A stretch of DNA of 64,000 bases, taken from IMG/VR virus record IMGVR_UViG_3300045988_082835; one strand, written 5' to 3'. Shown here one piece after another: positions 36,481 to 63,202 of the stretch. The notes under the pieces are model-generated. The model saw nothing but the letters and a program-made list of their open reading frames with translations. It was not told the origin of the DNA and did no database searches. Each line of letters opens with the position of its first letter. Positions within the stretch are counted from its first letter, which is position 1. The translations under genes were made by a program, and so were the position numbers. Source of the DNA: a virus.

Positions 36481-36545
36481 TAGTACACTTCCCTCACTAA
36501 AGAGAGGCGTAAAGAAAAGACTTTAGATTTTACGCCTCTCTTGAA
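36481..36545 (+). terminator. rho-independent terminator after the homing-endonuclease gene
   Basis: AGAGAGGCGTAAA..TTTACGCCTCTCT hairpin + T. Confidence 0.5.
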
Positions 36546-36603
36546 AATTAAAAAAAATTATTATATAATATATATAGAAAGTTAAGGAAAGGAAGTTCTG
36601 AGT
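36541..36603 (+). promoter_or_regulatory. middle/late promoter family member TTGAAA-17-TATAAT plus conserved start and 5'UTR ATATATAGAAAGTTAAGGAAAGGAAGTT
   Basis: same motif at 42473, 46468, 53731, 54447, 30330, 31058, 37831, 27625, 29785, 57600, 60385 and 63160. Confidence 0.55.
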
Positions 36604-37494
36604 TTGAAGATTTATCTCGACCTGGAAGCTAATTGCACCACCAATGAAGCAATTTCTATTGGTATGGTAACAGAGAATGGAGATACATTTTATAGTCTCA
36701 TTCGTCCGCATACGAAACTTGACCATAATATAAAGGTTTTGACAGGAGTTTCTCAGGAAGATGCAGACCAGGCTCCTAGTCTTGAAGAAGCAATGTTAGG
36801 AGTTAGAGAGTTCCTTTCCTTTCTTGATGAAGAAAATACTTTCTATCACTACGGCAAGAGTGATAGGGATTTTCTTAGAGCTTCTATGGGCTTTACGACT
36901 GATATGAAAGCTCTTACTACTCTGCAATACATTCACAATAGATGTGAAAATGTTGACAAAAGGGTGGCGTCTCATTTTCGCAGGGATGCGATTGGTCTTA
37001 GGTCTGCGTATCTGACCATGAAACTTTCTTCTGAGGATCCAATTCAGAATCATAATGCTTTAGAAGATGCCTGGATGTTGAAATACGTTTGGGAAAATAT
37101 TGATGGATACACTCTTCCTGATGGGATTGAGCCGGTAAAAGTACCTAAGGTCAAGATGTCTTATGGTAAAAGCAAGGCTAATCCTGCAAGCCCGGAAGAG
37201 CTGATGAATCGCAGACTGACGGCGAAACAGCCGCGTTCCCGCAGAAATGAAGCGATTAGGAATTGTCCTGCTATTGATGACGATAAGTATAAGATTGCGG
37301 GAGTGGCGATTAAGGGTGAGCGTGAAATTCCCTTTAAAGAGATTTATGAAGTAAAAGGGTTCGTTCATACGGGCAGATTTAAAACTGCGGCCCAGGTTCT
37401 TCATGCTCTTGATGTTATTTACGCGGCCATGGAGACCGGTAAAGGTAATCCAGATACCAAAGGCTGGATTTTTAAGAAAGTTGAAAAACAATAA
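36604..37494 (+). CDS. DEDDh 3'-5' exonuclease (DnaQ-like), TTG start
   Basis: IYLDLEANCTT, YHYGKSDRDFL and HNALEDAWMLKYVW motifs. Confidence 0.6.
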   Translation: MKIYLDLEANCTTNEAISIGMVTENGDTFYSLIRPHTKLDHNIKVLTGVSQEDADQAPSLEEAMLGVREFLSFLDEENTFYHYGKSDRDFLRASMGFTTDMKALTTLQYIHNRCENVDKRVASHFRRDAIGLRSAYLTMKLSSEDPIQNHNALEDAWMLKYVWENIDGYTLPDGIEPVKVPKVKMSYGKSKANPASPEELMNRRLTAKQPRSRRNEAIRNCPAIDDDKYKIAGVAIKGEREIPFKEIYEVKGFVHTGRFKTAAQVLHALDVIYAAMETGKGNPDTKGWIFKKVEKQ

Positions 37495-37509
37495 AAAATA
37501 TTGTATAAT
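37481..37509 (+). promoter_or_regulatory. tRNA-operon promoter TTGAAAAACAATAAAAAATATTGTATAAT; identical copies at 38086..38114 and 39935..39963
   Basis: 29-bp exact repeat; TTGAAA-17-TGTATAAT; overlaps ..EKQ* stops of upstream ORFs. Confidence 0.55.
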
Positions 37510-37580
37510 ATTTATGTGAGTTGTTCTGTTGCAGCAGAACTTATAAGCCGCAAGTGAGGGCTTTATACTCACTTTTATAT

Positions 37581-37675
37581 CCCGCGGTAGCTCAACGGTA
37601 GAGCAGCCGGCTTATACCCGGTATTAGCGCCAGATTAGCGTGAGGTTTGGGGTTCGAATCCCTGGCGCGGGACCA
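37581..37675 (+). tRNA. atypical 95-nt tRNA: standard acceptor, D- and T-arms, anticodon loop CTTATAC (UAU), 25-nt unpaired extra region
   Basis: cccgcgg..ccgcggg acceptor, gctc/gagc D-stem, ttcgaat T-loop, ACCA 3' end. Confidence 0.4.
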
Positions 37676-37737
37676 TAGGCGTAACGCTGCACGCCCTCGA
37701 AAGAGGTATCACAGAAGGCACATACAGCAAAGTTATT

Positions 37738-60448: not shown

Positions 60449-60760
60449 ATGGTTATTACTAAACATAGTAAGCAGAGAATTGTTGAAAGAACCAATGGGG
60501 TGTCTACTTTTGCAGAAGCAAAAAGATTGGCTAAGCAAGCTAGGATTTCTGGTAAAACGCTTAATCATTTCCAAAAGTATCCTAAATTCTTTTCTTATCT
60601 TCAAAATAAAAAGAATCAAACCAATGATTGTTCCATCAGAGTTTATAGGGGCTGCATTTATATTTGGAGAGGAAGAAATAAGACTCTCGTAACTGCTCAT
60701 CCTATACCCGAAAGGTATATCAAAGAAATGGAGGAGATTGATAATGAAGCTGTGGATTGA
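60449..60760 (+). CDS. hypothetical basic protein
   Basis: ORF track. Confidence 0.4.
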   Translation: MVITKHSKQRIVERTNGVSTFAEAKRLAKQARISGKTLNHFQKYPKFFSYLQNKKNQTNDCSIRVYRGCIYIWRGRNKTLVTAHPIPERYIKEMEEIDNEAVD

Positions 60761-61064
60761 TGACCTACGGCCGGCGCCCTTTGGATACCGCATTGCTAGA
60801 AGCGTAAATGAGGCTATCGAGATAATTGAGACATATGAGATTATGCACCGAATGAGCGGTGGAAAGAAAATCTATGAAATTGAATTGATAGATATTGACC
60901 ATGATGCCGGAGATTTCTTTCAAGATGGCGGAGATTATATCAAAATTCTTGATTGGATGGAAGTTACTAATAGAAACTACCCTATTCATATCCATAGTAT
61001 GAATCCTGTTGGAATAGAAAATATGTGTCGTATTATTCAAAGAAATGGATGGAGAGAAGTATGA
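60738..61064 (+). CDS. hypothetical protein
   Basis: ORF track. Confidence 0.4.
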   Translation: MIMKLWIDDLRPAPFGYRIARSVNEAIEIIETYEIMHRMSGGKKIYEIELIDIDHDAGDFFQDGGDYIKILDWMEVTNRNYPIHIHSMNPVGIENMCRIIQRNGWREV

Positions 61065-61477
61065 GAGCATTTCTTATCGTTTCCCTTATTGTCCTTTTTT
61101 CTGGATTCATTATTTTCCTCATTTCGTACAATATAGCTTTTAACAATAACGGAGAAACAAAACTTAATTTATCAACCTTTAGAAAAATATATAAAATAAA
61201 TCCCCGGAAATGGTCGGTAAAAGAAAAATGGGAGGATAGCATTAAACATTTGTATTACAGCGGTCATAAAGTTAAATTAAGCTTCTTGGCTTTTTGTTAT
61301 TTTCGATGGGATAGAATTTTCTCCAGATTTACCGAAAACAGAAAAGACCAAAGAGATACTTTAATTTGGGTACTGCAAGATTGTCAAAGGGACATTGAGA
61401 TATTAAAAGAAAAATCAGAACGCCAAATCCAAGACGCATTGGAGCAGCAAAGAAAAATTTTTGAGAGATGGGAGTGA
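61025..61477 (+). CDS. membrane-anchored protein (N-terminal TM)
   Basis: ORF track. Confidence 0.4.
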   Translation: MSYYSKKWMERSMRAFLIVSLIVLFSGFIIFLISYNIAFNNNGETKLNLSTFRKIYKINPRKWSVKEKWEDSIKHLYYSGHKVKLSFLAFCYFRWDRIFSRFTENRKDQRDTLIWVLQDCQRDIEILKEKSERQIQDALEQQRKIFERWE

Positions 61478-61481
61478 TTAA

Positions 61482-62279
61482 ATGACAATTTTTGAACGAG
61501 TAAGAGAGCATTATGATGAAGCTCTTACCCATTTCACAGAAGACCAAGTTGTGGGAATCTTTCTTCAAGGTTCTCAAAACTATGGACTCGATACTCCGCA
61601 ATCGGATGTAGATACAAAGCTAATTGTAGTTCCTAGCTTTAAAGACATTGCTATGAACCGCAAGCCAGTTAGCACAACTCATATTCGAGCAAACGATGAA
61701 CATACTGACTGGAAGGATATTCGCCTCTACATTCAGACATTCCGCAAACAAAACTTAAACTTCCTCGAAATTCTTTACACAGACTTTGCTATTGTTAATC
61801 CCATCTATGAAAAACAGTGGAATCGTTTAATTCAAGCAAGAGAAAGGATTACTCATTTTAATCCTTATCGTTCTGTTCAAAGTATGAAGGGTATTGCGCT
61901 AGAAAAATATCACGCTATGGAGCATGAATACCCAAGTAAAGTTGAAGTTTTAAAGAAGTATGGTTACGATCCTAAACAACTCCATCATCTTGTTAGAGTA
62001 GAAGATTATCTTGGAAGATATATCGCAGGAGAAAGTTATGAGAGTTGTTTAAACCCAGGCCCATTCAAACAAGAGCTAATAGAAATTAAGATGGGCAAAT
62101 ATTCTCTCGCGGAAGCTAGGATTGTGGCAGATAAATCTAAGGCTCATGTGGAAGAAATGGCAGAGTATGCGTATTCTATCTATCCAAATAAAGAAGACGC
62201 GGAAGTCAATGCTCTTCTTGATGATGTGCAATATGAGATTATGAAATTAGCGGTTGAAAGGGAGTTGAATAAAAGATGA
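61482..62279 (+). CDS. nucleotidyltransferase-fold protein (Pol-beta superfamily minimal NTase)
   Basis: GS-x9-SDVD motif (IFLQGSQNYGLDTPQSDVDTKLIV). Confidence 0.55.
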   Translation: MTIFERVREHYDEALTHFTEDQVVGIFLQGSQNYGLDTPQSDVDTKLIVVPSFKDIAMNRKPVSTTHIRANDEHTDWKDIRLYIQTFRKQNLNFLEILYTDFAIVNPIYEKQWNRLIQARERITHFNPYRSVQSMKGIALEKYHAMEHEYPSKVEVLKKYGYDPKQLHHLVRVEDYLGRYIAGESYESCLNPGPFKQELIEIKMGKYSLAEARIVADKSKAHVEEMAEYAYSIYPNKEDAEVNALLDDVQYEIMKLAVERELNKR

Positions 62280-63145
62280 TTAAGAATTGGCTCGTGACTG
62301 GAGATACACATGGGCGAGTTATGGAGCGCCTTTCGCAGATAGATAGCGATAAGTATATTCCTGACGAAACGGCTATCATTATTCTCGGTGATGCCGGAAT
62401 CAATTACTTCTTGAATAAGACCGATGTAAAAAACAAGAAGTCTATTCAGGCAAGTGGCTACACTATTTATTGCGTCAGAGGAAACCATGAAATGCGGCCG
62501 GAGCGTCTTCCCGCAATTAACTGTGCCTTTGACTTTGAAGTTCAAGGTATAGTGCGCTATGAAGAGGATTATCCTCATATTAAATATCTTGTCAATAATC
62601 AAATCTACAAATTTGGTGATTACTCTGCTCTTGTTATTGAAGGAGCCTATTCAGTAGATAAATATTATCGCCTTGCTGGAACTGGATTAACTGGGGAAGA
62701 GGATTATGAATTAGTCGCCAAGAAAGCTGGATGGTTTAAGGACGAACAGTTATCCGCGGAAGAAATGAATTTTGCAACATTGGTAATCAAAAATAAGCAA
62801 GTTGATTTTGTTCTTAGCCATACTTGTCCGCTCTCTTGGCAACCAGTAGATCTTTTCTTATCTGCCGTAAACCAGTCAACAGTAGATAATACGATGGAAA
62901 AATGGTTAGACTCTTTAAAGAATGAGTTTCAGTGGAAAATTTGGTTGTTCGGCCATTTCCATAAAGATAGAATTGAACGACCCCACGTAGAGCAGTTTTT
63001 CCAAGATATTCAGCCTATTGATTCTATCTATAATAGATGGTATGGAGAAAAAACTATTCACAAAGAATGGTACTTAGAAAAGTCGCCTAATTACTATTTA
63101 AAGGGTGATACGCCTTTCGATGAAGATTTAAAGGAGGAGCTTTAA
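62276..63145 (+). CDS. calcineurin-like metallophosphoesterase
   Basis: GDTHG, GDAGIN, GNHE and GHFH motifs. Confidence 0.65.
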   Translation: MIKNWLVTGDTHGRVMERLSQIDSDKYIPDETAIIILGDAGINYFLNKTDVKNKKSIQASGYTIYCVRGNHEMRPERLPAINCAFDFEVQGIVRYEEDYPHIKYLVNNQIYKFGDYSALVIEGAYSVDKYYRLAGTGLTGEEDYELVAKKAGWFKDEQLSAEEMNFATLVIKNKQVDFVLSHTCPLSWQPVDLFLSAVNQSTVDNTMEKWLDSLKNEFQWKIWLFGHFHKDRIERPHVEQFFQDIQPIDSIYNRWYGEKTIHKEWYLEKSPNYYLKGDTPFDEDLKEEL

Positions 63146-63202
63146 GCCCTCCTTTATTTTTATATTTTATTATGGTATAATATAATAAAGGAAGTGATTA
63201 AA

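Follow-up and report, generated by a model that had tools for sequence, protein, structure and literature searches.

What is the repeated sequence block that stands in front of many plus-strand genes in a 64,000-nucleotide stretch of viral DNA (IMG/VR record IMGVR_UViG_3300045988_082835), and which machinery reads it? A sequence-only reading of this stretch, the whole of which is here called the window, had described a promoter with an almost invariant leader before more than 13 middle and late genes between 36541 and 63200, together with a separate promoter for tRNA operons, and had suggested a dedicated regulator or control at the RNA level. The analysis described here bears out that the blocks are promoter-plus-leader units, in which conservation, given the usual start site, reaches into the initially transcribed sequence (ITS). 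The repeat family is far beyond chance, yet it is narrower than first described, and its members are probably promoters of the type used by the host's own housekeeping polymerase.

Extent and anatomy of the promoter family

Exact matches to TTGMAA-N17-TATAAT number eleven in the window, all on the plus strand, against 0.11 expected, and eight of the eleven fall within 36541-63200. When the window was scored for TATAAT (at most one mismatch) followed by three bases and TATAGAAAGT (at most one mismatch), ten sites were returned, all on the plus strand and none on the minus strand. Nine of these form what is termed class B, with the core TATAAT-N3-TA(T/C)AGAAAGT and -10 elements starting at 27632, 30353, 31081, 36564, 37854, 42496, 46491, 53754 and 54470, and one (promoter 22487, -10 start 22510) is a member of a second, early promoter class. 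About eight looser class-B members begin at 24786, 27046, 29773, 31443, 32188, 57593, 60382 and 63158, and the family spans 24786 to 63186 on the plus strand; the family proposed for 36541-63200 is thus real, but it begins at about 24786, outside that range. A repeat search of the window placed 12 copies of a 66-nt unit in one group. Chance matching in AT-rich DNA was ruled out by shuffles and by a control scan with the ITS reversed. The class-B promoters and the open reading frames (ORFs) behind them are as follows.

24786-32243 (+): region of looser members, with -35 starts at 24786, 27046, 29773, 31443 and 32188; AT-rich spacer, TATAAT or TATTAT, AT-rich discriminator, predicted +1 = A, purine leaders of the TAAAAGG/TAAAGGAGG type.
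27609-27668 (+): core promoter adjoining terminator 27582-27615; TTTATT at -35, no TTG; reads TATAAT ATA TATAGAAAGT AAGAAAGGAAG; ATG at 27669.
30330-30390 (+): core promoter behind terminator 30299-30324; TTGCAA-17-TATAAT AAT TATAGAAAGT GATTAAGGAGG; ATG at 30391.
31058-31119 (+): core promoter; TTGCAA-17-TATAAT AAT TATAGAAAGT GAGAAAGGAG; GTG at 31120.
36541-36603 (+): exact copy 1 of the 28-nt leader; -35 TTGAAA at 36541-36546, -10 TATAAT at 36564-36569, core TATAGAAAGT at 36573-36582, predicted +1 = A36576, ribosome-binding site (RBS) AAGGAAAGGAAG, TTG start codon at 36604; a terminator-like hairpin, read by eye, lies directly upstream, and the gene behind is an RNase T-like exonuclease (Pfam RNase_T).
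37831-37889 (+): core promoter; TTGAAA-17-(TG)TATAAT ATT TATAGAAAGT GAGAGAGGAAG; ATG at 37890; the ORF behind it (71 aa) runs at its end into the next 29-mer promoter.
42473-42536 (+): exact copy 2; drives ORF 42537-42806, then tRNA-Lys and tRNA-Gly.
46468-46528 (+): copy 3, with one mismatch; drives ORF 46520/46529-46720, then tRNA-Val.
53731-53811 (+): core promoter, TACAGAAAGT variant; 46-nt leader with a 5' purine block about 35 nt from the working Shine-Dalgarno (SD) sequence; ATG at 53812.
54447-54496 (+): core promoter with 12/12 consensus, TTGACA-17-TGnTATAAT; ORF 54497-54826, then the suppressor tRNA(CUA) at 54919-54993.
57593-63207 (+): region of looser members at 57593-57652, 60382-60448 and 63158-63207, each just behind a terminator.

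At every core site the -10 is exactly TATAAT and the spacer exactly 17 bp, and at the 12 sites with an exact -10 the -35 reads TTGAAA, TTGCAA or TTGACA. Four looser members in the window have no TTG at -35, two of them with TGn. In class B, a TTGNNN -35 (absent from some sites) is separated by 17 bp of A/T-tract spacer, in which TGn is frequent, from TATAAT; a 6-nt discriminator of A and T only comes next and ends in T, and the conserved decamer stands at a constant distance of three bases from the -10. The predicted start is the A seven bases past the -10, which would give the transcripts the 5' end AGAAAGU, and start codons lie mostly about 25-29 nt from this predicted +1. All the promoters are intergenic (two of the 29-mers described below overlap the end of an ORF) and on the plus strand, with either an SD and start codon or a tRNA leader behind them, and several blocks ahead of SD and start codon directly follow intrinsic-terminator hairpins. 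An arrangement of the T4 MotA type, in which an activator box replaces the -35 of middle promoters, was not found, the TTG at 17 bp being kept in almost all members.

The longer leader is much rarer than the core. The 28-nt sequence ATATATAGAAAGTTAAGGAAAGGAAGTT is exact at 36570 and 42502 and carries one mismatch at 46497 (none expected from shuffles), and the almost invariant leader ascribed to more than 13 genes is accordingly reduced to three copies, or four if that at 27641 is counted. What the paralogous promoters share from +1 to about +20 is the core TA(T/C)AGAAAGT at nine sites and 28 nt at three. Between the 28-mer copies everything from the -10 through the SD is identical and the spacers differ, which argues that the three are not simple recent duplicates. 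The leader tail AAGGAAAGGAAGTT is not special to class-B sites, since GAAAGGAAGT is the general ribosome-binding consensus of the genome and is also the RBS of many genes that do not directly follow a promoter. Structure prediction finds the class-B leaders of the window unstructured, by which a 5' hairpin was ruled out as the reason for their conservation, and an Rfam search returned no known RNA family at the leaders.

The genes served are best seen against the coding of this large gut phage, in which TAG is read as an amino acid; the window holds 29 tRNA genes, and a suppressor tRNA with anticodon CUA is encoded at 54919-54993 (+). The structural and packaging genes at 3589-10873 (-), among them those for the portal protein, 4857-6485 (-), and the large terminase, 6862-8607 (-), contain 4-14 in-frame TAG codons per gene, and the class-B motif is absent from them. 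The first gene is free of in-frame TAG at eight of the nine class-B core sites. The earlier assignment of the family to middle and late genes does not agree with this distribution, and an early/middle role of the class-B units, read from codon usage alone, fits better. The genes served show no common functional theme in PHROG or Pfam.

The promoter at 54447 is the only one with 12/12 consensus in its half of the window, and it carries the AGAAAGT start. The suppressor tRNA(CUA) would be co-transcribed from it with a TAG-free 109-aa ORF, an arrangement that bears on the timing of the code switch.

The second kind of repeat is the 29-mer TTGAAAAACAATAAAAAATATTGTATAAT, which is exact at 37481 and 39935 and is present at 38086 with two mismatches (a TG to GT swap); none is expected from shuffles.

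37481-37509 (+): 29-mer, exact; overlaps the stop of the exonuclease ORF; followed by a non-coding leader, tRNA-Ile(tat) and tRNA-Ser.
38086-38114 (+): 29-mer with two mismatches, TATGTT for TATTGT, where relatives have TATTGT; followed by a structured-looking leader containing ACAGCAA, an HNH ORF, and tRNA-Asn, tRNA-Leu and tRNA-Leu.
39935-39963 (+): 29-mer, exact; behind the 3' end of a split tRNA-like element (by eye); followed by a leader of about 180 nt and tRNA-Ala, Glu, Glu, Met, Ser, Thr and His.

Two of the three copies reported as an exact 29-bp repeat at tRNA units are exact, and the third is not. The 29-mer promoter itself is real, but tRNAs are not transcribed from it exclusively, as the class-B sites 42473, 46468 and 54447 also serve tRNAs via small ORFs. 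That the repeat supplies the ..KQ* ends of upstream ORFs holds for the ORFs ending at 37494 and 38099, whose last codons it overlaps, but not for the third copy, which lies behind a tRNA 3' half (by eye); in a diverged relative a TGA inside the -35 ends the ORF instead. The overlap is therefore taken as incidental compaction, since one copy has none and the relative uses a different stop, and a coding role of ..KQ* was rejected because only two copies fit. The first 21 nt of the 29-mer occur exactly, in promoter context, in only about six related contigs, at orthologous places. Within the genome, paralogous 29-mers share -35, spacer and -10 and diverge from about +8. Their spacer contains the palindrome ACAATA-N5-TATTGT, which in the window is exact only at 37488 and 39942 and has two mismatches at 38093; it is broken in the window's second 29-mer and in two relatives (TATTAT).

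Just upstream of the third 29-mer, a tRNA-Asp(GTC)-like gene at 39390-39932 (+) is apparently split by a 140-aa ORF (39460-39882), its 3' half ending in CCA as judged by eye.

The early promoter class, to which the tenth core site belongs, differs in position and composition.

14394-22789 (+): early promoter class, about 14 sites; TTGACA-17, GC-richer spacer, often TGn, TATAAT-like -10.

Its starts read C-1 and A+1, then ATCAAGAG.. or AGAAAG, and several have 5'-proximal hairpins. The early units are separated by GC-rich terminators, seven copies of which form one repeat family, and the GC content of the early region is 43-47% versus 33-40% elsewhere in the window. The resulting transcription map comprises the early class at 14.4-22.8 kb, the AT-rich second class, and a TAG-recoded structural block with neither motif. 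The second, AT-rich class serves replication-type genes, small ORFs, tRNAs and the suppressor tRNA, and such a map is usable for an uncultured TAG-recoding gut phage. Within the high-GC 12.6-24 kb, a microbial PARG-type macro-domain protein is encoded at 12637-13401 (+) (Pfam PF10021, E = 8e-27), which is possibly a counter-defence enzyme.

Conservation among relatives and occurrence in other phages

In alignments with relatives that are 72-87% identical, the block from -35 to +7 is kept, the leader past +8 drifts yet stays purine-rich, and the flanking coding sequence changes, a pattern that indicates purifying selection on -35 to +7. The exact 28-mer is not conserved at orthologous sites (the orthologues of the 46497 leader, for example, differ after +8), and the invariance once attributed to it accordingly extends no further than -35 to +7.

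A scan of IMG/VR with the pattern TATAATAWWTATAGAAAGT returned at least 143 matches in at least 119 loci. Among the matches listed, TTG stands exactly 17 bp upstream in 130 of 143, versus a background of 2%, and a purine tract and start codon come next in most. A control pattern of the same composition, with the seven ITS bases reversed, was found in 42 loci in the complete IMG/VR scan, two of them with TTG in place. The 413 other TTGNNN-17-TATAAT promoters in the same IMG/VR loci have the consensus ATATAT-A-(G/T)-A-A-A. Individual phages carry the block as well. The annotated promoter P5 of Lactobacillus delbrueckii phage LL-Ku reads TATAAT TAATATAGAAAGTTAAGGAAAC, and the site in Staphylococcus phage CF5 reads TATACT ATATATAGAAAGTTAAGGAAAC; Enterococcus phage H1 has TATAAT ATTTATATAAGTTAAGGAAAGGGAG plus many TATAAT-(T/A)AATTATAAAGTTAA sites. 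In phAss-1 six promoters read TTGAC(A/T)-(c/t)AAAAAAATTTTTGTGn-TATAAT, two of which go on with ATATATAGAAAGTGAGGGA, the others starting with ACAGAAAGT, ACAGAAAAT, ACAAGGT or ACAATCA.

With a query of 44 nt, hits were obtained in 102 phage records, whose hosts are mostly Clostridium, Enterococcus and Lactobacillus, versus five plasmid records in a plasmid database three times larger. In a genome collection the -35 was in place in half of 126 matches, mostly on Clostridia contigs from metagenome-assembled genomes (MAGs), several of which look like phage or mobile DNA; no conclusion on the use of the motif by host chromosomes is drawn from this sample because it is biased by the search pattern. 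A literature search for the motif strings found no description of the shared ITS. Since the block is common to very different phages and the control pattern is not, constraints set by the host machinery (RNA polymerase, ribosome and RNA decay) are indicated rather than a phage-specific regulator, and the dedicated regulator once suggested is not supported for the main class, the same -10/start/ITS block being present in many phage contigs and in cultured phages. The promoter-leader design is thus common to many Gram-positive phages, real but essentially ordinary. As a marker, TATAAT-N3-TATAGAAAGT is specific for promoters in viral contigs (130 or more matches in true promoter context versus two for the control) and could seed promoter finding in Bacillota phages, and the core block could supply strong promoter-leader parts for Gram-positive hosts.

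The same promoter block also heads a conserved two-gene unit in six MAG contigs of Oscillospiraceae, Acutalibacteraceae and Ruminococcus (L135, L140, L167, L188, L227 and L231). The unit consists of a small ORF with an in-frame TAG, then a protein beginning ..PNQR.I.HRE...DFLGIKN.NW.AA.RDLGAHAL.LYLY, which suggests that these contigs are other TAG-recoding mobile elements, some of them with 41-52% GC.

Probable host-type promoters and the alternatives

The explanation that we favour, with moderate confidence, is that the blocks are host-type housekeeping sigma-A (sigma-70-type) promoters from which the early/middle and tRNA units of a Bacillota siphovirus that recodes TAG are transcribed. The large terminase shares 44-51% identity with its counterparts in Enterococcus phages EF1, H1 and VRE9_4, Geobacillus phage E3 and phAss-1 (a 'code 15' gut phage), and 33-35% with those in SPbeta-like Bacillus phages; as judged from this protein, the phage belongs among the Bacillota siphoviruses. 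Its host is probably Gram-positive, of the Bacillota and within these the Clostridia. A Clostridia host was also guessed for phAss-1 in its paper (PMC10607447), where the promoter terms looked for gave no mention of promoters. Contigs related at 72-98% nucleotide identity come from IMG/VR and from MAG bins that bear the labels Eubacterium and Oscillospiraceae, the binning of phage contigs being unreliable evidence for a host.

Host RNA polymerase would use the class-B sites, and the T-1/A+1/G+2 start with a purine ITS free of a pyrimidine-G step before +7 would have been kept for start-site choice and fast promoter escape. The purine-rich 5' end and the nearby SD would load ribosomes fast and thereby protect the transcript start against decay that depends on the 5' end. 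The three 28-mers would reflect homogenisation among paralogous copies and not a need for the exact sequence. ITS changes are reported to shift promoter output more than 10-fold, pyrimidine-G steps near +6 slow escape and GA or GG favour it (PMC5961368); the purine richness of the ITS and its lack of such a step before +7, set against these data, suggest an effect on output and escape here. For T5 early promoters too, the ITS matters for output according to the studies of Kammerer (1986) and Hsu (2006) as they are cited in PMC5961368. Ribosome binding near the 5' end protects Bacillus mRNAs from RNase J1, and RppH requires that the 5' end be unpaired and its second base be G (PMC3997798, PMC7509114).

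Several points weigh against this explanation. G+2 is reportedly counter-selected in B. subtilis primary transcripts, RppH needing it (PMC3997798), and a design for stability only would therefore not favour AG starts. The polymerase-escape data derive from the E. coli enzyme, the start sites are predictions from the position of the -10, and the host is inferred. To our knowledge, the ITS conservation exceeds any reported for host promoters, host chromosomal promoters having been sampled here with bias. Finally, the requirements of the polymerase do not account for the identical 17-bp spacer that the three 29-mer promoters have in common, since class-B spacers vary freely.

A modest chance is given to the conserved 5' end being mainly an RNA element, a view compatible with host-type promoters. 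The pppAGAAAGU end and the purine tract would pair with the 3' tail of 16S rRNA (CCUCCUUUCU), acting as a stabiliser of the STAB-SD/SP82 polypurine type or as a ribosome-capture site, or G+2 would time decay through sensitivity to RppH/RNase J1. AGAAAG complements the CUUUCU tail of Bacillota 16S rRNA, which is general for Bacillota and may not be the host's. It lies, with GAAAGGAAG, within 20 nt of the predicted +1, the match to the 16S tail assuming this general sequence. The 5' purine block is separate from the working SD at 53731, in CF5 and in LL-Ku P5, the class-B leaders in the window are unstructured, and G+2 has a higher frequency ahead of ORFs (0.53) than of tRNAs (0.33), which is suggestive only. 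In long leaders elsewhere (103 instances), an exact complement of the 5' heptamer lies within 50 nt in 19% versus 1% in shuffles; the partner of AGAAAGU is often ACUUUC(U), and it changes with the purine tract, as with GAGAGAG and CUCUCUC. Because the paired partner follows the purine tract, the 5' sequence is read as the fixed partner, with the hairpin built around it, and the frequent pairing of the fixed AGAAAGU argues for management of the 5' end at the RNA level. Precedents for 5' stabilisers are available (PMC3997798, PMC7509114). Set against this, the A-N-A-A-R-R-T conservation is equal in transcripts leading straight to tRNAs, where ribosome binding is irrelevant: A+1, A+3, A+4 and T+7 are equally conserved before tRNAs (n=61) and ORFs (n=293), which argues that the heptamer is not a translation signal as such. 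A signal for translation only was ruled out on this ground. Taken with the long leaders and the relatives, the comparison of tRNA and ORF transcripts agrees with a constraint acting at initiation, and it leaves room for a part played by the RNA 5' end. The fixed distance between motif and -10 fits a role at the DNA level equally well. As an addition to promoter function, a role of the purine-rich 5' end as a stabiliser or ribosome-binding element is plausible.

Somewhat less likely, and rather speculative, is a more general proposal, by which Bacillota phages of any lineage would share a dedicated start-site module (AT-only discriminator, pppAGAAAGU and purine tract) unused by host genes, with the palindromic spacer of the 29-mer as an operator timing tRNA output. 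The module would give transcripts a privileged fate, via ribosome capture by the 16S tail, handling by RppH/RNase J1 at G+2 or a Bacillota-specific contact of the polymerase. If the first seven transcribed bases exceed the optimum for escape and ribosome loading, a host step exploited alike by many phages would be revealed, and if the operator is true, tRNA output would be timed in a phage that depends on a suppressor tRNA for its late genes.

It is improbable that a dedicated DNA-binding regulator, of phage or host, reads the block or its spacer, with the 29-mer palindrome as an operator timing tRNA or non-coding RNA expression. In its favour, the 29-mers have -35, spacer and -10 in common and diverge only from about +8, whereas the class-B spacers of the same genome differ, and the 29-mer palindrome, exact at 37488 and 39942 and with two mismatches at 38093, has no other exact match in the window. 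A relative whose neighbouring exonuclease is only 55% identical retains 28 of the 29 bases, and phAss-1 promoters share a palindromic A/T-tract spacer too. An operator is nevertheless weakly supported, since the second 29-mer of the window and two relatives have an imperfect palindrome and yet show no sign of promoter decay, and A/T-tract, partly palindromic spacers are general in this promoter type across unrelated contigs. The spread of the class-B core over unrelated phages also speaks against a phage-specific factor, and no candidate regulator was identified, the ORF with a PHROG 'sigma factor' match (9788-10873) being TAG-recoded and not confirmed as such.

Slightly more doubtful still is that the blocks are mainly recombination cassettes like the terminator-promoter motifs (PeSL) of T4-type phages, their likeness stemming from gene conversion or modular shuffling and not from selection on expression. 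About seven of about 20 blocks are indeed composite terminator-promoter units flanking small ORFs (27609, 29773, 30330, 36541, 57593, 60382 and 63158 adjoin terminators; the others do not), the window's 46497 copy is closer to its paralogues than its orthologues are, and in the diverged relative the place of 29-mer copy 1 is followed by a leader similar to the one behind copy 3. Shuffling of the PeSL kind was rejected since synteny break points are not enriched at the blocks: among 98 internal block ends in alignments of the window with 12 loci of related contigs, three are within 60 nt of a promoter versus 5.9 expected, the ends lying at tRNA borders instead. The differing spacers of the 28-mer copies, which are not those of simple recent duplicates, point the same way. 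The likeness of the 46497 copy to its paralogues hints at occasional gene conversion, which would account for the three identical 28-mers.

That the promoters belong to a phage-encoded polymerase or sigma factor and not to the host holoenzyme is very unlikely: SPbeta-like relatives of the terminase clade encode their own polymerase, and ORF 9788-10873 (-), which opens the TAG-recoded late block and has a zinc-ribbon/HNH-like tail, gives a match to a PHROG 'sigma factor' family (E = 5e-39), but the -35, 17-bp spacing, extended -10 and -10 are textbook sigma-A, the block is annotated as an ordinary promoter in small Lactobacillus phages, and the ORF has nine in-frame TAG codons and no Pfam, NCBIfam or PDB match. 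Because of these nine codons its product would be made only with the suppressor tRNA present, and so probably late. As a sigma factor reading the motif it was rejected, its PHROG label being unconfirmed by Pfam, NCBIfam and PDB sequence searches.

Neighbouring features and known systems

The tRNA region contains further RNAs and RNA-like elements. A full-length ROOL RNA at 47254-47849 (+) scores 350 bits versus a gathering score of 99 (Rfam) and lies inside the tRNA cluster, just past tRNA-Gln 47160-47233; one relative does not align across this stretch. A phage-encoded tmRNA at 44377-44707 (+), between tRNA-Phe and an ORF, scores 71.6 bits in Rfam versus a gathering score of 47 and is not in the ARAGORN output. 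A candidate type-P1 twister ribozyme at 41447-41504 (+), directly 5' of tRNA-Ser 41510, reaches 45.7 bits (E = 4e-7), below the gathering score of 67.2. The tRNAs at 40.2-42.2 kb are separated by gaps of 200-300 nt. Rfam also finds a 120-nt tRNA with an insert at 48116-48235, and tRNA 3'-arm-like repeats, not called as genes, are present at 49169-49196, 49677-49753 and 41792-41814. The motif ACAGCAA(A/T)nTTTT, at 37722, 38128, 47043 and 48190, is found about 20-35 nt into tRNA-leading transcripts of many unrelated phage contigs; here it also lies just 5' of tRNA-Ser 37738 and within the inserted segment of the tRNA at 48116. It may serve in processing or belong to a small RNA that has yet to be described.

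The gene-poor stretch 25439-26118 holds four tandem 21-bp repeats (25439-25543) and, at 25887-26118, a 34-nt unit, in at least five copies, that includes the inverted repeat CATGGTATTGTCAGAATACCATG, and the stretch looks like an iteron-type origin or regulatory array. Two HNH-type endonuclease-like ORFs, 35509-36456 and 38290-38811 (+), share a repeated DLTGQKFG..L motif and have 10 and 4 in-frame TAG, respectively, though they lie amid TAG-free middle genes and tRNAs.

Several known systems resemble the blocks in part. The PeSL of T4-type phages are composite cassettes of a terminator and an early promoter (PMC2839356, PMC4122927). They are like the window in having short repeated terminator-plus-promoter units between small ORFs of a large phage genome, but the link to indel or shuffling junctions is not found in the window, and only about a third of its blocks include a terminator. 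In the Bacillus 5' stabilisers, namely cryIIIA STAB-SD and the SP82 early-RNA polypurine sequence, ribosome binding at the site blocks 5'-to-3' decay (PMC3997798, PMC7509114). A purine-rich, SD-like sequence at or near the transcript 5' end is common to these and to the window, where, by contrast, the purine tract is mostly the gene's own RBS and the heptamer also precedes tRNAs.

The early promoters of coliphage T5 (PN25, P25, P26 and others) are likewise paralogous host-polymerase promoters with near-consensus -35 and -10 elements, A/T-tract spacers and a conserved purine-rich transcribed region reaching the RBS. The host phylum differs, and the ITS AGAAAGU of the window is not that of T5; unlike the T5 ITS, it is common to many unrelated Bacillota phages. 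LL-Ku P5, phage c5, CF5, H1 and phAss-1 are like the window in the -10/discriminator/start/leader string itself, their records annotating a -35 and -10 at most, or nothing, and LL-Ku and CF5 differ from most window copies in that their purine block is not the working RBS. By analogy, the closest parallels to the promoters of the window are the T5 early promoters and the annotated promoters of Lactobacillus phages.

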